NCBI GenBank assembly: GCA_021648085.1
Contig: JAKITS010000001.1
Coordinates: 45,434 to 109,433 of the forward strand
Direction: 5' to 3'
DNA from: Candidatus Magasanikiibacteriota bacterium
GTDB lineage: Bacteria; Patescibacteriota; Patescibacteriia; Magasanikbacterales; UBA922
DNA length: 64,000 nt
Numbering within the stretch: position 1 is the first letter of the stretch; every line of letters begins with the position of its first letter. This document shows positions 1 to 56,847 of this stretch, piece by piece. A program made the translations under genes and the position numbers. The notes below the pieces were generated by a model that did not search any database, was not told where the DNA came from, and saw only the letters and a list, made by a program, of their open reading frames with translations.

Positions 1-985
1 TTATTGGCGTTGGTATACAGAATTAACTTGGAAAAGATTAAACGCTTTACCAGAAGATGCGGTTGTAAATGTGGCAGTTGCTTTGCAAATTCCAATGGCA
101 CTCATGTTAAATTATGATGTTTGGGAAAGATTAATGTGGTATTTAGGATTAAGAACTTATGAAGAAAAAGAATTAGCAAGTCTTTATGTGAAAATTAGGG
201 ACGCTTTTATGAATTCAAGAGCGTTTTTGGGAAAAAGTAATGGAAAAGATTATGTAGTTCGTGATTTTGTGGAAAAAGTAAAAATTTTAGAAAGAAAAGA
301 TGAAGATAGTATCGAAACTGCAGAATTTTATGACAAAATTAGAACTATAATAAAAGAGCAGAGTTGTATTGTAAATAAGTATATAGAAGTTGATATAAAT
401 GATTTTATAAAAAGCTTAAGAAGTTTGGTTGCTTTTTTCCTGGGTGTTAAACCAGAAAATGCACCAAGTGTCGTAGAAATATTTATGTATCCAGAGTTAA
501 TAGAAGCCGCGGAAAAAACTGAAGAGTATCTTAAAAATTTAGAAGAAGAAAAAGAAGAAGTGTTAGAACCTAAAAAAGAAGAGGTTGTAGAAACTCCATT
601 TGTAGAAGAAAAACCAGCAGAAATTATTGAAGAATTAAAAGAGGAATTGGCTGTAGAAGAAAAAGTTGAACTTGAAAAAATAGAAGAAGTTCCTGTAGAA
701 AAAACTGTTGTGGAAGAAGCTTTAGTAGCTCCAGCTGAAGAAAAAGTCATTCCAACAAAAATCACAAAGCCTATTTTAGAAGAAAAGCCAGAAGAAAGTA
801 AAATGTCTTTGGAAGATATAAAAAAAATGATTGAGTCTAGGTTTGCAGATAAAGAGGGAAAAATAGAAAATATAGAAAGTGTGTTTACTTTGTTAAATTC
901 TATTGCAGATGATCAAAAAGATGAAAGTTTGCGAGAGCTGTATTATTTTGATGAAGAAAAAGGTGATTTTACTTGGAATATTTAA
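1..985 (+). CDS. hypothetical protein, 5'-partial (reading frame open to window edge), C-terminal E/K/V-rich low-complexity region
   Basis: ORF track 71..985 starts at GTG, but frame 2 is open back to nt 2 with no stop; acidic/lysine-rich tail; no recognisable domain. Confidence 0.45.
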   Translation, partial: YWRWYTELTWKRLNALPEDAVVNVAVALQIPMALMLNYDVWERLMWYLGLRTYEEKELASLYVKIRDAFMNSRAFLGKSNGKDYVVRDFVEKVKILERKDEDSIETAEFYDKIRTIIKEQSCIVNKYIEVDINDFIKSLRSLVAFFLGVKPENAPSVVEIFMYPELIEAAEKTEEYLKNLEEEKEEVLEPKKEEVVETPFVEEKPAEIIEELKEELAVEEKVELEKIEEVPVEKTVVEEALVAPAEEKVIPTKITKPILEEKPEESKMSLEDIKKMIESRFADKEGKIENIESVFTLLNSIADDQKDESLRELYYFDEEKGDFTWNI

Positions 986-994
986 TTTTTATAT

Positions 995-2686
995 ATGTCA
1001 CAAGGACCTACAATTTTGGTAAAAAAATCAGATGGAACTGCTGTCAAAATGACAATGGCTGAATTTAGGGAATATAAAAATGTTAAAAAAGAGGTAAAAC
1101 TAGAAGAGGTAAAAAATGATGGAATATCATCCCGAAAGATGAAGAAGGATTTTGAAGAAAAATTACCAAAAAAAGATAAGAAACAGTCAAAACCTGTAAA
1201 ACAAAAAAAGGAAGAGAAAAAAGGAAAACGCTATGAAAAAACTGGACTTATAAAACAGACCCCGCATGAATTGATGAAAAAAGAAGAAAATCTTCCTGCT
1301 GTTGTAGAGTTTGCAAAAAAAGAAATGAAAGTTCCAGCCAATTTGCCAATTTCCGAATTGATTAAAAAAGATATTGCAAAAAAAGAGGAGGAGAAAAAGA
1401 GTAAAATTTCAAAAAAAGAAGAAAATAAAGAGGTGAAAAAAATAGCAGATTTAATTGAAGATGAAATAACTGAGAATAAACCAGAACCAAAACCAGAACC
1501 AAAACCAGAACCAAAACCAGAACCAAAACCAGAACCAAAACCAGAACCAAAACCAGAACCAGAACCAAAACCAGAACCAAAACCAGAACCAAAACCAGAG
1601 AAAATAAAAGTGGAAGATGTTAGGGTTAAAAAAGAAGAAAATTATATTGAATTAGAAAAGGAAAAAAAGAAGAGTTTTCTAAAAGAAGATGAGGTTGTTG
1701 CTGAAAAAGTTTTGGAAGCAAAAAAAAGACAAGAAAAAAAACCATTAGCAGAGATTCCAAAAAAGAAATGGAGAGATAGTGACTATAAGTCACCGTTGGA
1801 TGAAGATTTGGGAAATATTTCTAACAATATAAATGATGGTGGTGCAGACAAAGAAGTTGTTGCGAATAGGGTAATTTCTAGTATGAATTTTAAAGTTGCA
1901 GACGATTTGCAAGGAAGACTTAGAACTTTAATACTTTCTAGATTGAAAGATGTAAGAGATGACGATCAGTTGAGAGAATATGCACAAAAAAAAGTTTTAG
2001 ATGGTGGTTTAGGTTTGAACGGTAAAAATACTGATGAATTAGTAAGGTTTGTTTCTGGAACAAAAAGAAGTCAGGAGGGTATTAATGTCGTAGAGTCTGC
2101 AGAAGAAAGTTTTTTGAAATCTGTGGGAAGTATTACAGAAAAACCATCAAAAACAGATGATGTAGTTTCTCAAATTATTGAAAAAGAAAAAACTAGATCT
2201 ACCGGATTACAAAAGCTTACAATCGCACAAATGGTAGGTGAGAAGAAAGAAGAAAAAACATCTGTTCAGGCTCCAGTAATTACAAAAATTTCTTCTATAA
2301 AAACAAACATAAAAAGTGATTTTGCACGCAAAAAACCAATGCACGATATAAAAAAAGTACAAGGTGGTGAAATTAGAATGGGGCCGGTGGACGAGATAAG
2401 AACATTTAAATCAGAAGATTTTCACAGATTGAACAAAGATGCAGGAAAAGCTATAGAAAAATTGTTGAATAAGGTGAGTGTCTTAAAAAGTAGTTCATTT
2501 TTACTTTATATGGATGCTGTAAAAGCTTGGTTGCAAAGTCCTTTTTATAAAAGTTATCAGGAAGTTTTGCTTGATGCGGTGAATAGCAACAGAAAAATAG
2601 AGGATGTTTTGAACGAAGATAGGCACAAGATTTCAGCAGAAGATTTCTATGTAGTTGTAAAAATTAACAAGAAAATAAAAATTTAA
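995..2686 (+). CDS. Lys/Glu-rich protein with central (PEPK)n proline-rich repeat and ordered C-terminal domain
   Basis: 563-aa ORF; 12-bp tandem repeat encodes ~26 PEPK units; TonB/VirB10-like proline-rich spacer but no obvious TM segment. Confidence 0.5.
   Translation: MSQGPTILVKKSDGTAVKMTMAEFREYKNVKKEVKLEEVKNDGISSRKMKKDFEEKLPKKDKKQSKPVKQKKEEKKGKRYEKTGLIKQTPHELMKKEENLPAVVEFAKKEMKVPANLPISELIKKDIAKKEEEKKSKISKKEENKEVKKIADLIEDEITENKPEPKPEPKPEPKPEPKPEPKPEPKPEPEPKPEPKPEPKPEKIKVEDVRVKKEENYIELEKEKKKSFLKEDEVVAEKVLEAKKRQEKKPLAEIPKKKWRDSDYKSPLDEDLGNISNNINDGGADKEVVANRVISSMNFKVADDLQGRLRTLILSRLKDVRDDDQLREYAQKKVLDGGLGLNGKNTDELVRFVSGTKRSQEGINVVESAEESFLKSVGSITEKPSKTDDVVSQIIEKEKTRSTGLQKLTIAQMVGEKKEEKTSVQAPVITKISSIKTNIKSDFARKKPMHDIKKVQGGEIRMGPVDEIRTFKSEDFHRLNKDAGKAIEKLLNKVSVLKSSSFLLYMDAVKAWLQSPFYKSYQEVLLDAVNSNRKIEDVLNEDRHKISAEDFYVVVKINKKIKI
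1481..1599 (+). repeat. perfect 12-bp tandem repeat (ccagaaccaaaa)n, about 10 units, coding for (PEPK)n
   Basis: read directly in sequence; the antisense ORF 1362..1592 (VLVL...) is its mirror artefact. Confidence 0.9.
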
Positions 2687-9454: not shown

Positions 9455-9475
9455 TTTTTACAAAAAGGACGGGAT

Positions 9476-9560
9476 TCCTCTCACTCCGATTCGAGCATAA
9501 ATACTGCGCGTACTCGTATCCTTCTCATCCAGACACGAGTAAAGATTTTTACTCGTTCCC
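9476..9560 (-). repeat. tRNA-downstream conserved element (GGATGAGAAGGATACGAGTACGCGCAGTAT..GGAGTGAGAGGAATCC on minus strand), copy downstream of tRNA-Ser(GCT)
   Basis: shares ~55 nt with two tandem copies at 9673-9898. Confidence 0.7.
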
Positions 9561-9568
9561 TTTCTTTG

Positions 9569-9658
9569 CGGAGAGGGCGGGATTCGAACCCGCGGTCCGG
9601 GAAATACCCGGACAACACATTAGCAGTGTGCCGCTTTCGACCACTCAGCCACCTCTCC
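9569..9658 (-). tRNA. tRNA-Ser (anticodon GCT), long variable arm
   Basis: cloverleaf readable: acceptor GGAGAGG/CCTCTCC, D-arm GCTGAGTGGTCGAAAGC, anticodon loop CTGCTAA, T-arm GGGTTCGAATCCC. Confidence 0.85.
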
Positions 9659-9672
9659 AGTATTTTTTGTTT

Positions 9673-9898
9673 TTTAAATTCTTGTGGAGAGAGTGGGATT
9701 CCTCTCGCTCCGACTCGAGCCTGGATACTGCGCGTACTCGTATCCTTCTCATCCCACACACGACACAAGACTTTGTGTCGCTTCTATCCTGCGGAGAGAG
9801 TGGGATTCCTCTCGCTCCGACTCGAGCCTGGATACTGCGCGTACTCGTATCCTTCTCATCCCACACACGACACAAGACTTTGTGTCGCTTCTATCCTG
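9673..9898 (-). repeat. two tandem 108-bp units, each = 18-nt copy of tRNA-Ser(TGA) 3' end (AATCCCACTCTCTCCGCA) + terminator-like hairpin + conserved ~55-nt element
   Basis: units 9673-9790 and 9790-9898 nearly identical; directly abut the 3' end of tRNA-Ser(TGA). Confidence 0.8.
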
Positions 9899-9985
9899 CG
9901 GAGAGAGTGGGATTCGAACCCACGGAGGGCGCAAACCCTCAACGGTTTTCAAGACCGCCGCCTTCGACCACTCAGCCATCTCTCC
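9899..9985 (-). tRNA. tRNA-Ser (anticodon TGA)
   Basis: acceptor GGAGAGA/TCTCTCC, anticodon loop CTTGAAA, long variable arm, T-arm GGGTTCGAATCCC. Confidence 0.85.
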
Positions 9986-10117
9986 AGTTTTATTTTTTAA
10001 AAATATTCAAACAATACGATAATAGTTTATCTTATTTTAAACAATAAGTCAATAGTTTTTATATTTTGTAAAAAACATAAAATATGATATAGTGATTGTA
10101 TATTCTTATATAAATCT

Positions 10118-10532: not shown

Positions 10533-12467
10533 ATGACAGATATTTTGCCAAAATCAAAGAAAAAAAGCCCAGCGCTTGTTGCACTAATTGTTTCTGCAAT
10601 TGTTTTTAGTGTATTTATTGCAATTTTTGCTATTACATCGGTAGTGGTTGGAATTCAATATTCAGAAAGGGTTGCACCAGGGTTAAGGATTGGGAATTAT
10701 GATGTGGGTGGTTTTACAAAAGATGAGTTAAAAGAGTTTTTACAAAACAAAAATGATCAACTTGTTGGCACTGGCATAAACTTATCTTTTAAGGATGGAG
10801 AGGGGAAAAAAGAGATAACACTTTATCCTGTTATACTTTCAGATGATTATGCATATGAACTCATCTATACGGATATACAAGCAGAAGTAGAGCGTATAAT
10901 TCGTTTTGGAAAGAGTGGTGGTGTAATGTTGAAAGGGGTTAGTAATATAATTTCAGCATTAGGAAAGCCAAGTATTTCTTTAAAATATATAGAGATAAGC
11001 GATGAAAAAATAATAGAAGAAATTAAAAGTTTGGTGAGTATGTATGAGTCTGAGGCAGTTGATGCATCTGTAATAGTACTTAAAACAAATCCTTTGGAGT
11101 TTAAAATAACATCATCATCGATTGGTGTAGTATTTGACTATCAAGACACTGTGTTTCAGATTAGGGAGCAATGGTCAAAATTGATTGTTCCAAATGTGGA
11201 AGTCGAAAAAGATGTTATAGATCCAAATTTTGTAGAGGATGATTTCAATGGTGCAGAAGATGCACTTAAAAATATGTTTTTGCATGGTTCACTATTTCTA
11301 ACTTATGATTTTTCAACAGCAGACAACTTTGTTTTTAGAGGTAAAAAAACATGGGAAGTGACACCACAGCAAATAAGTGAATGGATTGAGGCACAAGTAC
11401 AAGACGATGTTGTAGTTTTTGGATTAAACAAAGACAGGACATTCGAATTTATAGATGAAAAAATAGCATCAAAAGTGGACATAGAACCGCGTGATGCAAA
11501 GTTTGAGATAAATGAAAACAGTAAAGTGACAGAATTTCAAGGATCTAGGCTTGGTTTTAAGGTAGATCTAGAGGAGAATTATAAAAGTTTGAACAATTTA
11601 TTTGTAAGTAGAAATTTTTTGGAGGAGGGGGTAGACCTGCAATTGGTTTCAAGTACGGTTGATTTGATAATATCTGAAGCAGTATCAGAGATTTCAACCG
11701 GAGATGTAAATGATTTGGGGATTACAGAAATGTTAGGGACTGGTATTTCTGATTTTTCTGGTAGTCCCTCAAATCGCATCAAAAATATTAAAAATGCAGT
11801 AAATAAATTAAACGGAGTTTTGATAAAACCAGGAGAAGAGTTTTCCACAATTAGACATACAAAACCATATACAATATCTGGCGGATATTTACCAGAGTTG
11901 GTTATAAAAGGTGATCAGATAATTCCAGAAATTGGTGGTGGTTTGTGCCAAATAGGAACAACACTTTTTAGAATGGCTATGAACAGTGGTATGAAGATTA
12001 CCGAGCGTAGAAATCACTCTCTCGCAATTCCTTATTATAATGATCCTGTAAACCATCTCCCTGGAACAGATGCTACAATTTATGACCCAAATCCAGACTT
12101 TAGGTTTCTAAATGATACAGAAAATTATATCTTGCTCGAGGCTGATATAAATTGGAACACAATGGAACTTGTCTTTACTCTTTGGGGTACAAATGATGGT
12201 AGAGAGGCTAGTTTTACACACCCTGTCGTAAAGCGTTGGATTCCTCACGGACCTACAAAAAATATTGAAACTACAAAACTTGCACCAGGAGTAAAAAAAT
12301 GTCAACACTCTTATACTGGTGCAGAATCATATTTTACATACTCTAGACAGCTTCCTGGACAGGAAAAAGAAGAGATTGTCTACGAGAGTTATTATAGACC
12401 TCTGCCACAAATATGTTTGGTTGGTGTAGACCCAGATGCTTCATTAGAAACCCTACCCGTTGAATAA
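10533..12467 (+). CDS. VanW-family membrane-anchored protein (cell-wall associated)
   Basis: N-terminal TM; C-terminal VanW-like motif 'IIPEIGGGLCQIGTTLFRMAMNSG'. Confidence 0.55.
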   Translation: MTDILPKSKKKSPALVALIVSAIVFSVFIAIFAITSVVVGIQYSERVAPGLRIGNYDVGGFTKDELKEFLQNKNDQLVGTGINLSFKDGEGKKEITLYPVILSDDYAYELIYTDIQAEVERIIRFGKSGGVMLKGVSNIISALGKPSISLKYIEISDEKIIEEIKSLVSMYESEAVDASVIVLKTNPLEFKITSSSIGVVFDYQDTVFQIREQWSKLIVPNVEVEKDVIDPNFVEDDFNGAEDALKNMFLHGSLFLTYDFSTADNFVFRGKKTWEVTPQQISEWIEAQVQDDVVVFGLNKDRTFEFIDEKIASKVDIEPRDAKFEINENSKVTEFQGSRLGFKVDLEENYKSLNNLFVSRNFLEEGVDLQLVSSTVDLIISEAVSEISTGDVNDLGITEMLGTGISDFSGSPSNRIKNIKNAVNKLNGVLIKPGEEFSTIRHTKPYTISGGYLPELVIKGDQIIPEIGGGLCQIGTTLFRMAMNSGMKITERRNHSLAIPYYNDPVNHLPGTDATIYDPNPDFRFLNDTENYILLEADINWNTMELVFTLWGTNDGREASFTHPVVKRWIPHGPTKNIETTKLAPGVKKCQHSYTGAESYFTYSRQLPGQEKEEIVYESYYRPLPQICLVGVDPDASLETLPVE

Positions 12468-12507
12468 TAATAAAAATAAAAAGCGGTACATTTTGCACCG
12501 CTTTTGT

Positions 12508-13104
12508 TTAAGGTTTTGGCAGTCCATCTAATATTTTAGCAAGATCTTCTTTTGTTTCTTCTTCTATTTTTAGTATAAAATCTTTGTCTAACTGACTTCT
12601 TGTTATATTTGTTTCTATATTTGTAATAAAAATTTTATCTAACTTTCCTTTTGCGTTAAAAATAAAAATATTATCAGGTATTTTTCCATTTTCAAAATAC
12701 ATTACAGCGTATGTTCCGTCTGGTTCCCACATAGCAGCAAAACCGTCTGCCTCGCTGTTTTCGTTGAACATACCTATAACTAGTAGATTTCCATTTTTAT
12801 CCCACTGTGCCCACTTTCCAAAAGGTTTGTCTTTTAGGAACTCTCCAACAGTAATTATAGAGCCTGTTTCATCGCTATATTTTTGGAAGGGGCCTATTTT
12901 TTTAGAATTTTCATCTAAGCAATAATATTCAGTTGTAAACTCTTCACCAGAAACTTCTGTATAAGTGGTATTTTTGGGACAGTCAAAAATTTGTATTTGT
13001 TCAAAAATTTCTATGTCTGTTTTTTCTTTTGTATCTTCTTTTTTATTGCACCCAACTAAAAATAAACAAAAGATTATTAAAAGAACACTAATTTGTTTTC
13101 CCAT
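12508..13104 (-). CDS. lipoprotein with MORN/YwqK-like repeats (paralog 1 of 3)
   Basis: signal peptide + lipobox LVGC; G-x-W-x-x-W-x-x-NG-type repeats. Confidence 0.5.
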   Translation of the reverse strand: MGKQISVLLIIFCLFLVGCNKKEDTKEKTDIEIFEQIQIFDCPKNTTYTEVSGEEFTTEYYCLDENSKKIGPFQKYSDETGSIITVGEFLKDKPFGKWAQWDKNGNLLVIGMFNENSEADGFAAMWEPDGTYAVMYFENGKIPDNIFIFNAKGKLDKIFITNIETNITRSQLDKDFILKIEEETKEDLAKILDGLPKP

Positions 13105-13194
13105 TTTTTCCTCCTATGTTTGGATGGGTCTATGTATTTTTACATATTAAAGATAAAAAATCAAAAAAGCAGTACAAAATTGTACTGCTTGTTT

Positions 13195-13818
13195 TTATGG
13201 AATAGGAAGATCTTCTGTTTCTTTTGATATTATTTCTTTGTATAGTTCGTTTAGAAAGTCTATTTCATACTCTGTCATATTAGGGGCTTGAATTTCAACT
13301 CCATTTCGTCCTGGACTTTTGACTTTTAGAATTTTTAGAATTCTTTCATTTTTATATTCGTAAGCTAAATTTACAGGAACCCCTTTTGATAATTCAAGTA
13401 TTACACAGTGTTTATCTGCACCAATATTTATCCAAGCGATTGCATATCCGTGAGGTTGTCCTCTGTCATTAAAGTTTTCAATTGAAATGATTTCTCCTGT
13501 TTTACTCCATTTAACCCATTTACCAACTTTAAGATTTTTCCTAAATTCTGCGAGTGCTTTTATTTTCTGTGTATCAGTATAAAAAGCTACAAGCTTACCC
13601 TCAATCCTACCCAGTTCGTTTATACACGAATAAATAGTAGTATTTTCAATAGATGTCTTGTCTACCAAATATACTGTATCTTTTGAGCAGTTTATTTTTT
13701 GTCCGTCTTTTTTATCTGCAATGGTTTGAGTATCATCTTTTATAACTGTTTTATTACACCCAAAAGTAGTGAATATGAAAACTACCAATATAAAAAGAAC
13801 ACTAATTTGTTTTTCCAT
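13195..13818 (-). CDS. lipoprotein, MORN/YwqK-like (paralog 2 of 3)
   Basis: lipobox TFGC; N-terminal 12 codons nearly identical to paralog 1 (MEKQISVLFIL vs MGKQISVLLII). Confidence 0.5.
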   Translation of the reverse strand: MEKQISVLFILVVFIFTTFGCNKTVIKDDTQTIADKKDGQKINCSKDTVYLVDKTSIENTTIYSCINELGRIEGKLVAFYTDTQKIKALAEFRKNLKVGKWVKWSKTGEIISIENFNDRGQPHGYAIAWINIGADKHCVILELSKGVPVNLAYEYKNERILKILKVKSPGRNGVEIQAPNMTEYEIDFLNELYKEIISKETEDLPIP

Positions 13819-13937
13819 TTCCCTTTCCTATGTTTTAGATTGTAATCATAACAATCTTTTTATGGATAAATTTATAGTCCCACATTTTATACAAAAAAGC
13901 AATTTGACAGAAAAAAAAGACAGTATCAAAACCGTCT

Positions 13938-14627
13938 TTATTCAACAAACAGACTTACCTTAACCTCTTTGCCATTTTCAAATATTGTTTGCTCTACCAT
14001 CGTTATTGGAATATCCAAAAAATAATAATAATCTTTTCGGACAAGATACACCATTTGTATTTTGTTTAAATATCGAAATATATTTTCTTGCTTTAATTTT
14101 CCATTATTCCAAAAAGATTGATTTTCCAACCTCCCTTTTGCATCAGTTATTCTAAACTCACCATGTCTTTTCCCGTTTGAGTATTCGCCATAATAAACAA
14201 GAATTTTTGTATTTATATCCCATATTCTTTCAGATCTGGTATGAACTCCATTTATATAAAATGCTTGCCAGTGCAAAAAACCATTTTCTGTATACATCTC
14301 AAATTTGCCATGAAGTTTATCATTTTTGTAGTTTGATAAAGTTCTTATTCTCCCGTTATTATAAACAGACTTATACAACCCCTCTCTTTTGCATGTTGAC
14401 CTAGCTGTATTTATTTCTCCAGCAGAGCATTCTTTTGTTTTTACAACACAAGAATAAATTTTTACATCTTGTAAGCTCGAGTATATTTGTAATACAGTTC
14501 CTGTTTTACATATTTTTTCTATGTCTATGGTTCGCTCCGCAATTGTAATAGAACCAAACTCGGAACACCCTAAAATAAATAGTGAAAATAATAAAGTTAA
14601 AAACATCTTGTAAAGAACTGTTTGCAT
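13938..14627 (-). CDS. lipoprotein with MORN/YwqK-family repeats (paralog 3 of 3)
   Basis: lipobox ILGC; repeats 'YKNDKLHGKFEMYTENG', 'YSNGKRHGEFRITDAKG'. Confidence 0.55.
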   Translation of the reverse strand: MQTVLYKMFLTLLFSLFILGCSEFGSITIAERTIDIEKICKTGTVLQIYSSLQDVKIYSCVVKTKECSAGEINTARSTCKREGLYKSVYNNGRIRTLSNYKNDKLHGKFEMYTENGFLHWQAFYINGVHTRSERIWDINTKILVYYGEYSNGKRHGEFRITDAKGRLENQSFWNNGKLKQENIFRYLNKIQMVYLVRKDYYYFLDIPITMVEQTIFENGKEVKVSLFVE

Positions 14628-51953: not shown

Positions 51954-52559
51954 ATGAATAGAAAAACTATTGTTTTGGGAGGTGTTGTTGCTGGAATTAT
52001 TACAATTTTAGGTGTATCTACTGCGAGTGCTCATTTTGGCGGAAACAACCAATCAAATATTTTTCCAGAAAATCGTGAGGAAATTAAGCAAATAATCGAA
52101 TCAAAAGATTATGACGCTTTTAAAACTCATCTAGAAGAAAATGACAGAACTCAAATGCTAGAAAAAATCACAGAAGAAAAATTCAATAAATTCTTGGAAA
52201 TGAGAGAACTTGCGGAATCTGGTGATAAGGATGGCGCTAGAGAAATTAGAGAAGAGTTGAAATTGAAAAAGTTTAGAAAAAATTTCAATAAAGCAAAAAG
52301 ATTTGGATTGCAACACGAAGAAATGAGACAAATAATCGAATCAAGAGATTATGACGCTTTAAAAACTCATCTAGAAGAAAATGACAGAACTCAAATGCTA
52401 GAAAAAATCACAGAAGAAAAATTTGATAAGTTTCTAGAAATGAAAGAGCTTGCTATTTCTGGAGATAGAGAAGGAGCTAAAAAGATTGCAGATGAATTAG
52501 GTTTGGAAAGAGGAATAAGAAATCTTCACAAATCTATGCATAGACAAGTTCAAAAATAA
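51954..52559 (+). CDS. secreted helical protein with internal ~80-aa tandem duplication
   Basis: signal peptide; DNA 52086-52200 and 52326-52440 almost identical; terminator hairpin at ~52584-52603. Confidence 0.45.
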   Translation: MNRKTIVLGGVVAGIITILGVSTASAHFGGNNQSNIFPENREEIKQIIESKDYDAFKTHLEENDRTQMLEKITEEKFNKFLEMRELAESGDKDGAREIREELKLKKFRKNFNKAKRFGLQHEEMRQIIESRDYDALKTHLEENDRTQMLEKITEEKFDKFLEMKELAISGDREGAKKIADELGLERGIRNLHKSMHRQVQK

Positions 52560-54233: not shown

Positions 54234-54551
54234 ATGAGTAGATTAAGAAAGGGAATTGTAAAAGTCAGTACATCTTGGAAAGGTGAGGTTAAGGAAAAGT
54301 ATGGTAAAAGATGTGTAGTCTGTGGTTCTTTAAAGAATATAGAAATTCATCATGTTATAACAAGACGAAATTATCTTGTTAAACGATATATACCAAACGG
54401 AGTTCCTCTTTGTCGTGACCATCATTCTAAAAATTGTAAATCAGCTCACAAAAACCCAAGTTGGTTCAAAGAATTTATAATTGAACGAAGAGGACAGGAA
54501 TGGTGGGATGATTTACATGAAAAGAGTAAAAAACCCAAAGAAGGTGGATAG
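54234..54551 (+). CDS. small HNH-like nuclease-motif protein
   Basis: 'CVVCGS..IEIHHV.....N...LC..HH..NC' Cys/His arrangement typical of HNH; adjacent to tRNA-Asp integration-scar-like repeats. Confidence 0.4.
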   Translation: MSRLRKGIVKVSTSWKGEVKEKYGKRCVVCGSLKNIEIHHVITRRNYLVKRYIPNGVPLCRDHHSKNCKSAHKNPSWFKEFIIERRGQEWWDDLHEKSKKPKEGG

Positions 54552-54613
54552 TTTTTTTAAGAGGTGTAATTTTATACATCTCTTTTTAAATTTATTTAAT
54601 AAAGAAGTCTAAA

Positions 54614-54785
54614 ATTTAGACTATTTTTTATTTCGCGGACCGGACGCTCAGGCTCTCCCTGTGATATTTTACTATCGTAAAATATCCCTTCTCGTCCCAA
54701 CACGAGCAAAGACTTTTGCTCGCTTCCGTCCCACAAAACAAAAAATAGTCATTTAGACTATTTTTTATTTCGCGGACCGGACGGG
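54614..54785. repeat. 34-bp direct repeat (tttagactattttttatttcgcggaccggacg) = tRNA-Asp 3' end + flank, bracketing a 105-bp insert related to the tRNA-Ser-linked elements
   Basis: copies at 54614-54646 and 54753-54785; insert contains 'cccttctcgtcccaacacgagcaaagacttttgctcg' similar to 9476-9898 elements. Confidence 0.75.
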
Positions 54786-54846
54786 ACTCGAACCCGCAAC
54801 TTCCGCCGTGACAGGGCGGTGCTCTAACCAATTGAACTACCGATCC
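54773..54846 (-). tRNA. tRNA-Asp (anticodon GTC)
   Basis: reverse complement GGATCGGTAGTTCAATTGGTTAGAGC..CCTGTCACGG..GGGTTCGAGTCCCGTCCGGTCCG. Confidence 0.85.
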
Positions 54847-55182
54847 ATATGGGTACAGTTCATAATTCATTTTAGCCCATAATTTATAAAATTTAGCTGC
54901 AAACTATTTTTTCTTAAACACCTTATAAATATAAAGTTTATTAATAAAAAATTGTTTTCGCTTAAATTTTATTGAATTCTAACTAAAAGCAATTGTGAAC
55001 TGTACCTATTACTATTAACAAGATAATTTTATCAAATTAACAATCTATTGTCAACATATCTCAATAAAAAAGACCTTCGAAGTGTTCGACAACAAACAAG
55101 GGAATGAAGGAGGGGGTATCCCTGCCATTACCGAACACTGCAAAGGTCTTTTTCAAGATGCTAAATAAACTTTTAATAGAGA

Positions 55183-56341: not shown

Positions 56342-56451
56342 CCTGTTTTTATAATACGTTTCTTAATTTTTTAAAAGTATTTAGTAGGTAGCCTATGTTT
56401 CCTTTTTTACTTAATCGGCATTACTTACTTTGTCTAGTTTGCTTTCTTTTG

Positions 56452-56847
56452 TGGAGATGCTGGGAGTCGAACCCAGGTCTAGAGCGGGTTGCATAAGCGT
56501 TCTACATGTTTAGTTATTTTTGTTTTGAACTATAATTTAATAGAATAACAAAAGCAATTATAGCGTGCTTGTATGCAATTTCAAAACATATCTACAAGTA
56601 AAATATGTTTCTACACTCGATTAAGTTTACACCGCATGATTGCTATCGAGAATCACAGTTGCGATGGTTTCGGCAATTAAGCCAAAACAGATGCGAATGA
56701 AGGAGTAGTAAATGCGTTAGCAAATACATTCTTCACTCTTGATACTACTTTTGCGTTTGTAGATTGTTTTATGGATTTATGAGGTATAAAACACCCTCAA
56801 CATGCCCGTATATACAACTTGGCCGTCTATCGAAGCCTGTCACCCCC
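56452..56847 (-). ncRNA. ssrA: tmRNA (SsrA), predicted tag peptide ~ANAFTTPSFASVLA*
   Basis: 5' end GGGGGTGACAGGCTTCGATAGACGG (cf. E. coli GGGGCTGATTCTGGATTCGACGGG); 3' tRNA-like end GCATGTAGAACGC...CCTGGGTTCGACTCCCAGCATCTCCA; immediately downstream of smpB. Confidence 0.75.

Follow-up and report, generated by a model that had tools for sequence, protein, structure and literature searches.

The window analyzed here is a stretch of 64,000 nucleotides (nt) from contig JAKITS010000001.1 of a Candidatus Magasanikiibacteriota bacterium, whose genome was assembled from metagenomic data, and the subject of this work is an element of about 105 nt that follows tRNA genes within it. The gene for tRNA-Asp(GTC) lies at positions 54772–54846 on the minus strand (ARAGORN; Rfam tRNA model, 66 bits) and does not encode the CCA end. 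A repeat search of the window reveals an exact 33-nt direct repeat, ATTTAGACTATTTTTTATTTCGCGGACCGGACG, at 54614–54646 and 54751–54783, with a start-to-start spacing of 137 nt. The proximal copy (54751–54783) consists of the last 12 nt of the real tRNA-Asp 3' end (54772–54783) and 21 nt of its downstream flank. The distal copy (54614–54646) contains a 12-nt copy of the tRNA 3' end and 21 nt that match the same flank. An exact repeat of a 33-mer in 64 kb is far beyond chance. An earlier note on this DNA had described a 34-bp repeat, with its tRNA copy at 54753–54785, around a 105-bp insert; the repeat is real, but these numbers are off by 1–2. Between the two 33-nt copies lie 104 bp. Short spurious open reading frames (ORFs) overlap the 104 bp, which hold no credible coding ORF.

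Read on the strand of the tRNA, tRNA-Asp is followed by an A-rich/U-rich spacer (54735–54771, minus strand) with a weak terminator-like hairpin, AAAAAAUAGUC-UAAAU-GACUAUUUUUU, which is evident from the sequence and as a 31-nt inverted repeat (I2) with 77% complementarity. A terminator scan with a criterion of at least three G-C pairs did not call this hairpin. Its stem can be prolonged by base pairs that join the 5' arm of the element to the tRNA 3' end, forming a long hairpin in the whole-precursor fold. The element itself occupies 54635–54734 on the minus strand. It begins with the arm GUGGGACGGAAG (P1a, 54723–54734), followed by a 20-nt hairpin with the loop AAAGUCUU (HP1, 54703–54722), the linker UGUU (54699–54702), and the segment GGGACGAGAAGG (54687–54698). 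A 24-nt hairpin (HP2, 54663–54686) comes next, and then CAGGGAGAGCCUGAG, which comprises a small CAGG..CCUG hairpin and a linker (54647–54662). The element ends with CGUCCGGUCCGC (54635–54646), which is the tail of the tRNA once more. This copy is matched by a covariance model, R1, at 54629–54733 (45.6 bits, E 1e-9), and its single-sequence fold has a z score of -4.0.

The window contains four copies of the element, one at tRNA-Asp, two in tandem at tRNA-Ser(TGA), and one at tRNA-Ser(GCT). All four lie directly 3' of a tRNA and are co-oriented with the tRNA strand. The gene for tRNA-Ser(TGA) is at 9898–9985 on the minus strand (ARAGORN and Rfam). Its first element copy (9790–9897, minus) was recognized by R1 (match 9790–9899, 46.5 bits), by an 18-nt repeat and by its fold; it begins 2–3 nt past the discriminator, and its terminal GAAUCCCACUCUCUCCGC is identical to the tRNA. 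The second copy (9683–9789, minus) follows in tandem and ends in a tRNA copy with one mismatch. Sequence, alignment, and motif matches identify it, together with a weak Rfam match to the RtT family (9682–9773, 22.9 bits); R1 did not list it separately, and its assignment is based on the motif matches and on its being nearly identical to the first copy. The gene for tRNA-Ser(GCT) (9568–9658, minus; ARAGORN) starts 24 nt downstream of the second copy and is followed by an element at 9459–9567 (minus; R1 match 9459–9566, 51.4 bits), in which the copy of the tRNA tail shows partial decay (GAAUCCCGUCCUUUUUG). Downstream of this element is a terminator-like hairpin. The motifs GGAYGAGAAGG and AAARTCTTnnnTCGTGT each occur four times in the window, solely at the element copies, and no element of this kind is present at tRNA-Val and tRNA-Ile. 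The Ser cluster has only one promoter-like site, upstream of tRNA-Ser(TGA), and there is none between the second copy and tRNA-Ser(GCT) that would belong to the latter gene. A search for the tRNA-Ser locus in other strains by exact matches to the neighboring proteins found none.

The individual minimum-energy folds of the copies share one architecture. Helix P1 is formed by the 5' arm and the acceptor-side part of the tail copy, and hairpin HP1 branches off from it. In helix P2, GGGAY is paired to RUCCC, and the continuous 3' strand lets this helix stack on P1. P2 also closes a second three-way junction, which contains GAGAA, HP2, and a small hairpin, HP3. Using RNAalifold on seven copies from metagenomes, 31 base pairs are obtained, and 17 of the 31 show compensatory changes. 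R1 was built from these seven copies and so excludes the window sequence. When R1 is run on the window, it finds three of the four copies with 45.6–51.4 bits (E ~1e-9 to 1e-11) and matches nothing else. That a model free of window sequence recovers three of the copies, and that the motifs are shared at all four sites, bears out the kinship with the tRNA-Ser elements that had been proposed for the bracketed DNA. On orthologs of the tRNA-Asp copy, R1 gives 28.8–40.4 bits.

An alignment of 23 matches was made with the model since MAFFT misaligned the 3' ends of the Asp type; some long-form matches in it are truncated or misaligned. Of its cells, 88.9% are paired, compared with 66.6% after shuffling and 30–47% when the partners are slid, and both sides have changed in 23 of the 31 pairs. 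Covariation also links the Y of GGGAY to the R in the T-loop copy, as in GAGUCCC/GGGAC and GAAUCCC/GGGAU. With hand-defined segments, the arms pair with their own tail copy at -10.3 kcal/mol and with other copies at -5.9 kcal/mol, and none of 20,000 permutations was as good. Judged from these sequences, the element is a conserved, folded strand with strong covariation.

To place the element in a wider context, a degenerate core pattern was scanned against metagenomes. This gave 42 loci, of which ~24 hold true copies; the others match by chance within coding DNA. The true copies are placed immediately 3' of tRNA-Leu (CAA and TAA), Val, Gln, Gly, Glu, several Ser, and Asp, on contigs with a G+C content of 31–52%. 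They follow a common plan: the tRNA and a spacer hairpin, the arm P1a, HP1 (CGAGCnAACUGCUUnGCUCG), CGUn, GGGAY, and GAGAAGG, and then HP2 (often with a GCGAUG/CCGCGA internal loop), CnGG, the small hairpin HP3, and a copy of the tRNA up to the discriminator. The motif GGGAYGAGAAGG is conserved in every copy. The tail copy starts in the T loop at (C)GA(A/G)UCCC. It is intact at 17–19 nt in Ser(TGA) of the window and at the loci that we label L025, L028, L032, L036, L049, and L062; in the Asp lineage it is 12 nt long, and several others are decayed (8–15 nt) or mismatched (L027). In the window, L049, and L036, the repeat extends 14–36 nt beyond the tRNA end and reaches 33–55 nt, so that repeat lengths across the loci range from 12 to 55 nt. 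Partial units are present at the Asp copy of the window, in L049, and in L036, and tandem arrays of two units (Ser(TGA) in the window) and three units (L054) also occur. The exception to tRNA linkage is an orphan copy in L025, which is not preceded by a tRNA.

No protein family recurs beside the element among the loci. The cluster to which a neighboring protein of L041 belongs bears the name Patescibacteria group bacterium, the sole such assignment among the metagenome loci. Two scans of viral contigs gave only chance matches in coding DNA, with no tRNA nearby and no R1 match. In genome contigs the strict core pattern had 0 matches, and a genome-contig scan with IF3 gave two loci, both lacking tRNA-Asp. 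At the gathering score, Rfam finds only tRNA and transfer-messenger RNA (tmRNA) in the window and 16 loci; at E values up to 10 it adds miRNA-type noise, sX4, and sub-threshold RtT. We found no description of the element family in the literature.

Several of the metagenome loci show additional arrangements. L025 (4350–4508 and 3982–4160) carries three forms, namely an HP1 type after tRNA-Val, a form with a contiguous 16-nt arm and GAAAGG after tRNA-Ser, and the orphan, which is of the HP1 type and whose arm extends a terminator hairpin. In L027, L031, and L061 (at ~690–840 in L027), the element follows tRNA-Gln and its tail is a tRNA-Leu-type end, CCCGGGCA, and the arm is still like the complement of tRNA-Gln; this mismatch suggests recombination between copies at different tRNAs. 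Both ends of the 2762-nt contig L036 carry the same tRNA-Gly, spacer, and HP1, a pattern that points to a ~2.65-kb circle, to a tandem unit, or to an assembly loop. Within this contig, a 55-nt direct repeat spans the tRNA tail, spacer, arm, and HP1. In L028 (~930–1190, minus strand), an ORF for an 84-residue GIY-YIG nuclease (Pfam 5e-13) is flanked by the tail copy of the element and by a further, third copy of the 3' end of tRNA-Ser, so that the tail repeat has been reused by another small cassette. In L055, a tyrosine integrase gene (538–1599; Pfam 4e-21) is situated directly upstream of a tRNA 3' fragment, which is followed by the element (230–470). The tail of this element has diverged, and its arms still match the tRNA fragment.

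Relatives of the tRNA-Asp locus were reached through homologs of the protein encoded by the neighboring HNH-like ORF and through DNA scans, which provides a small sample. The element is found beside tRNA-Asp in every relative recovered (L013, L015, and L054), and also in L014 and L021, where the tRNA has been lost or is off the contig. L013 is 96% identical to the window over 2.25 kb and keeps the tRNA, the spacer, and the first two-thirds of the element; the 3' third is different and has no tail copy. The tRNA flank in L013 differs at 2 of 21 positions from both repeat copies of the window, and therefore the repeat of the window was homogenized recently. In L015, where the HNH-like protein is 59% identical, the tRNA-Asp, the terminator hairpin, and the element are all present, and the tail copy CGUCCGAUCCGC follows its own tRNA (CCGAUCC in L015 versus CCGGUCC in the window). 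L054 contains three tandem units of 136 nt. In L021 the element is present and the contig ends short of the tRNA.

The elements of the window and L015 are ~81% identical when counted by eye. With blastn, the tRNA and element are 86% identical between the two, compared with 67% for the flanking HNH region. Paired substitutions between the two are observed in HP1 and HP2, and compensatory changes are also seen in the orthologs of L054 and L021. None of the window, L013, L014, L015, L021, and L054 has a tRNA-Asp without the element, and only the 3' third and the copy number vary. Because the element is present in every relative recovered and carries compensatory substitutions, it is old and inherited rather than recently inserted. 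The young part is the perfect 33-nt repeat. The bracketed DNA is thus not a recent insert, and no insertion polymorphism at this tRNA appeared in this small sample.

In L014, the tRNA-Asp gene is missing. At the position of its 3' end starts a block with HTH_3, M78 peptidase, and Phage_CRI genes (10700–14041), beyond which the element is intact. This block is probably an integrated small phage or plasmid.

The closest known counterpart of the element is RtT, an orphan of the Escherichia coli tyrT operon since the late 1970s that has, to our knowledge, no accepted function. The tyrT repeats are reportedly co-transcribed with the tRNAs, and RtT RNA is reported to be released by processing (Egan and Landy 1978; Rossi et al. 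1981; Bösl and Kersten 1991). A preprint takes the same view of RtT and leaves its function unsettled. In E. coli K-12, tyrT is followed by one RtT unit, tyrV, and three further RtT units. Each unit ends in AAUCCUUCCCCCACCACCA, which is the tail of tRNA-Tyr, and has a complementary strand GGGGAAGGAU, then GAGAAG, and then a pair of hairpins. The 3' end annotated for RttR RNA coincides exactly with the tail copy and its tRNA-like CCA.

The elements studied here share this layout. Like the 178-bp repeats of the tyrT operon (rttR, overlapping tpr), they are located directly 3' of a tRNA, co-oriented with it, and also between two tRNA genes. Both kinds of unit end in a copy of the last ~19 nt of the tRNA from AAUCC in the T loop. 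Both have a 5' strand complementary to the tail copy that leads at once into GAGAAG, where the 10-mer GGAUGAGAAG is identical, and two hairpins ahead of the tail copy. Tandem units with a partial last unit occur in both. The alignment of the Rfam RtT model (RF00391) to a Ser copy of the window is full-length, with GGAUGAGAA, an AGCGA-GAG block, and AAUCC plus the tail aligned. In contrast to the one continuous arm of RtT, the arms here are split by a conserved 20-nt hairpin, with CGAGCnAACUGCUUnGCUCG or the window loop AAAGUCUU; the L025 variant after tRNA-Ser, which has a contiguous 16-nt arm and lacks HP1, resembles RtT in this respect. Further differences are the length of 100–160 nt compared with 178 nt, the lack of an encoded CCA, the tuning to many tRNA identities, and the occurrence in Patescibacteria-type genomes. 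The element is RtT-like by architecture, but the scores fall below threshold in both directions and do not establish homology, and we do not file it as a member of RF00391. It is a variant of the RtT kind that annotation had missed, and its structure is well supported.

A related observation concerns sX4, a Xanthomonas small RNA in Rfam. Sub-threshold matches to its model (27–41 bits) were found at 9856–9989 of the window and in L032 and L062. They span tRNA-Ser and the start of the element and are carried mostly by tRNA-Ser, and the consensus of the model ends in ...GGGGGGUGAGA. In the original sX4 paper, a band of 280–300 nt was detected, compared with the 156 nt expected. It may be that sX4 itself is a tRNA-Ser with an RtT-like trailer.

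On balance, we consider it slightly more likely than not that the 104 bp at tRNA-Asp make up the body of a non-coding RNA element, conserved and structured, which follows tRNA genes in the layout of RtT and would be excised by tRNA enzymes, and that the HNH-like gene is unrelated to it. Each copy would be transcribed together with its tRNA, which at the Ser cluster is suggested because the sole promoter-like site lies upstream of tRNA-Ser(TGA). The two 5' arms, split by the conserved hairpin, would pair with the tail copy of the last 12–20 nt of the tRNA. The resulting coaxial helix of P1 and P2 would imitate the acceptor stem and T stem of a tRNA and close the junction with the invariant GAGAA(GG). 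Such a tRNA-like end could let the enzymes that process tRNA ends cut the element from the precursor, with RNase P acting on the 5' side and RNase Z, or exonucleases together with the CCA-adding enzyme, on the 3' side. Excision would yield a stable small RNA and a defined tRNA 3' end, as the ends of RttR suggest for E. coli. Because the tail copy repeats the end of the tRNA gene, the locus would be prone to unequal crossing-over and gene conversion. Recombination of this type may have produced the tandem arrays (two units in the window and three in L054), the partial units, and the homogenized 33-nt repeat.

Several points weigh against this interpretation. The best match of the RtT model to a Ser copy of the window, 22.9 bits, is well short of the gathering score of 45 and has an E value of 0.01 in a search of 126 nt; on the contiguous-arm variant of L025 the model reaches 13.7 bits, and it has no match in a 57-kb scan of the other loci. 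Conversely, R1 scores at most 4.7 bits on the E. coli tyrT locus and does not detect RtT. The 23-match alignment was fitted to the model, which favors structure. G-U pairs (27) exceed A-C pairs (18) only modestly, and the strand of the structure is for this reason assigned mainly from the co-orientation with tRNAs. Both co-transcription and cleavage by tRNA enzymes are inferred for this organism, as is any cellular role. At tRNA-Asp, only read-through transcripts would contain the element because a terminator-like hairpin intervenes. Finally, in seven cases in which the tail copy of the element has diverged, the real tRNA tail is an equal or better pairing partner for the arms, and whole-precursor folds predict strand-swapped conformers. 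The arms may therefore have the tRNA itself as their biologically relevant partner.

These last observations lead to the main rival explanation, which is possible, though we would not expect it to prevail, namely that the element is a cis-acting switch on tRNA maturation. The arms would pair with the real tRNA 3' end and extend the spacer hairpin, and the tail copy of the element would act as the competitor strand. The identical partner strands would make the precursor bistable, and the balance would set how much of the tRNA folds and matures. The arms fit the tRNA as well as or better than the copy in 7/7 of the diverged-tail cases, with tRNA and copy at -12.5 versus -7.1 kcal/mol in L055, -12.3 versus -6.6 kcal/mol in L060, and -8.8 versus -4.1 kcal/mol for P2a of the Asp copy in the window. 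The stem of the spacer hairpin continues into the pairing of tRNA tail and arm in the window, L015, L028, L049, and L062. In the minimum-energy fold of tRNA-Asp with its element (-96.6 kcal/mol, z -7.8), the arms are paired to the tRNA tail, and the distal copy is paired to the tRNA 5' strand; the fold of the Ser precursor is likewise strand-swapped. However, thermodynamic folds ignore co-transcriptional folding and the tertiary stability of the tRNA, and any strand complementary to a copy of the tRNA tail is automatically complementary to the tRNA as well. Decay into pseudo-elements may also account for the diverged copies, and no ligand or signal is apparent.

A broader proposal, to which we give equally limited credence, unites these elements and E. 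coli RtT in one ancient and widespread class of tRNA-tail-addressed RNAs that act on their own tRNA. Members would be either bistable cis-regulators of folding and 3' maturation or decoys or sensors for readers of the acceptor end. According to this proposal, the arms are re-tuned to whichever tRNA they follow, across at least eight identities, and the tail copy is a strand-exchange competitor and not a passive by-product.

It is unlikely that the element is a relic or miniature integrative element in which the repeats are the att-site cores of tyrosine-integrase-type integration and the ~100-nt body is mobilized in trans. A classic signature of tRNA-targeted integration is a repeat that begins in the T loop and reaches or passes the end of the tRNA, and L055 has an integrase by its tRNA fragment and element, L014 the Phage_CRI/HTH/M78 block, and L028 the GIY-YIG ORF with a third tail copy. 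Yet neither the window nor most of the loci have an integrase between the repeats or next to them, L055 being the only case, and no neighboring family recurs. The body is a conserved, covarying, folded strand with arms retuned for each tRNA, and an att scar needs none of that. It is inherited at orthologous tRNA-Asp loci where no empty site was found, and the repeat length of 12–55 nt and the partial units are typical of tandem duplication. The earlier note had named a simple tandem duplication present in all relatives among the findings that would refute its reading, and this applies in part: the built-in copy of the tRNA tail together with local duplication or conversion explains the repeat, and arrays of two to three units exist. 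As in known tRNA-targeting integrative elements, the direct repeats take in the 3' end of the tRNA from the T loop onward, and the loci attract integrases and phage-like blocks; unlike in those elements, only ~100 nt lie between the repeats, with no recombinase and with a conserved folded RNA whose arms are complementary to the repeat.

The HNH-like ORF (105 residues; 54234–54551, plus strand) stops 62 nt short of the distal repeat. It is external to the repeats and runs on the strand opposite to the tRNA, toward which it converges, and we judge it to lie outside the element. Its product is 100% identical to NCBI protein L3J07_00445, which is encoded on a contig of 984 kb. The sequence has a CxxC...HH...CxxHH pattern and matches PHROG HNH families with E values of 3e-10 to 1e-3. 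In Pfam, HNH_2 scores 14.6 bits, below the cut-off of 21, and the PDB matches (the IscB HNH domain and a nicking endonuclease) are weak (E 0.02–0.04). From its sequence the ORF is plausibly HNH-like. The small Cys/His ORF with HNH character described before is thus recovered with its pattern and a PHROG match, at 62 rather than 60 nt and with Pfam below the cut-off.

The earlier note had suggested a homing or integration mechanism that involves this nuclease; a model in which it cuts tRNA genes and drives homing or insertion of the miniature element is, in our view, highly improbable. The HNH-like character of the ORF (PHROG 3e-10), its distance of 62 nt from the distal repeat, and a homolog ~0.6 kb from the triple array of L054 would agree with such a role. 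However, the ORF lies outside the repeats, Pfam HNH remains below its cut-off, and in L014–L016 four to five genes (~3.9 kb) separate it from the element. By tblastn, no homolog is present near the Ser copies, elsewhere in the window, or near any of ~15 other element loci, and none is found at an element locus other than tRNA-Asp. Only three clusters among 5.8 billion proteins contain homologs, all within the tRNA-Asp/rplT synteny block of Magasanikbacteria relatives, so that a narrow lineage gene stands against a widespread element. This missing co-occurrence largely refutes the homing model, and the HNH-like gene is judged to be a lineage-specific neighbor that is unrelated to the element.

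Functionless, decaying duplicates of tRNA genes, with the repeat as a leftover of tandem tRNA duplication, are just as improbable: the 5' arm lines up in register with the 5' acceptor strand of the tRNA and is similar to it (GGAUAGA versus GGAGAGA; GGAUUGG versus GGAUCGG) and the 3' end is the tRNA tail, but the middle is not tRNA-like and the same core, with compensatory substitutions, follows at least seven tRNA identities at a G+C content of 31–52%, and independent decay is not expected to converge on a conserved covarying core, which refutes this reading.

Other known systems were also compared with the element. The hepatitis delta virus (HDV)-like theta ribozymes found 3' of phage tRNAs (PMC10879173) are similarly structured RNAs directly downstream of a tRNA that could define its 3' end, but by manual check the helix order here does not fit their nested double pseudoknot. 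No self-cleaving ribozyme (HDV-like/theta, hammerhead, twister, pistol, or hatchet) has an Rfam match at E up to 10 in the element regions. The hammerhead core CUGANGA was compared by hand, and GGGAYGAG differs from it and has a Y that is paired and covarying. A hairpin ribozyme was likewise rejected by hand on the grounds of a wrong helix order and of core positions that pair and covary. A T-loop intron or split tRNA was considered as well; the paper on group I introns in tRNAs of Patescibacteria (PMC13011429) concerns position 35/36 and is unrelated. The tRNA-like domain of tmRNA, mascRNA, and viral tRNA-like structures have in common with the element a coaxial helix like that of acceptor and T arm and a tRNA-type 3' end. 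In contrast to these mimics, the element has no analogue of the T loop or the D loop, and its helix is built from a literal copy of the tail of the neighboring tRNA; Rfam models of the tRNA-mimic families gave no match above noise. A miniature inverted-repeat or other transposon was rejected, as the terminal inverted repeat (I3, 29 nt) corresponds to helix P1 and differs in sequence from one tRNA to the next, and the direct repeats vary from 12 to 55 nt.

The occurrence of a covariation-supported family with the logic of RtT (arms complementary to the tail, a GAGAA junction, and a literal tail copy) after many tRNAs in uncultured bacteria with reduced genomes argues that selection maintains the design, which would then be more than a chance feature of a single operon. 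Dozens of natural variants are now available from which its role could be worked out. Rfam does not contain the family, and annotation would miss it. Because its built-in repeat of the tRNA tail mimics integration scars, the element can be mistaken for mobile-element activity, as in the earlier note; the same repeat breaks short-read assemblies at tRNA loci.

Further features were observed around the tRNA-Asp locus and elsewhere in the window. A 161-nt imperfect palindrome (54849–55009), with 76-nt arms that are ~72–76% complementary, lies between tRNA-Asp and a strong promoter-like site (55054–55026, minus strand, 11/12 with TG). The equivalent promoter in L015 abuts the tRNA and the palindrome is absent; no further copy of it was found in the window or the fetched loci. 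An ORF of 201 residues at 51954–52559 has an internal duplication of ~75 residues (ESKDYDAFKTHLEENDRTQMLEKITEEKF..., present twice) and no credible Pfam match. Directly 3' of rplT there is a long hairpin (55060–55160, minus strand) with a G/C-rich central part. It is 87–92% identical in L015, L011, and L054, where it is better kept than the surrounding intergenic DNA, and it could be more than a terminator. The tmRNA of the window (56451–56847, minus strand) encodes an unusually long tag peptide of 25 residues, AKVVSRVKNVFANAFTTPSFASVLA, which is nearly identical in L011 and L054.

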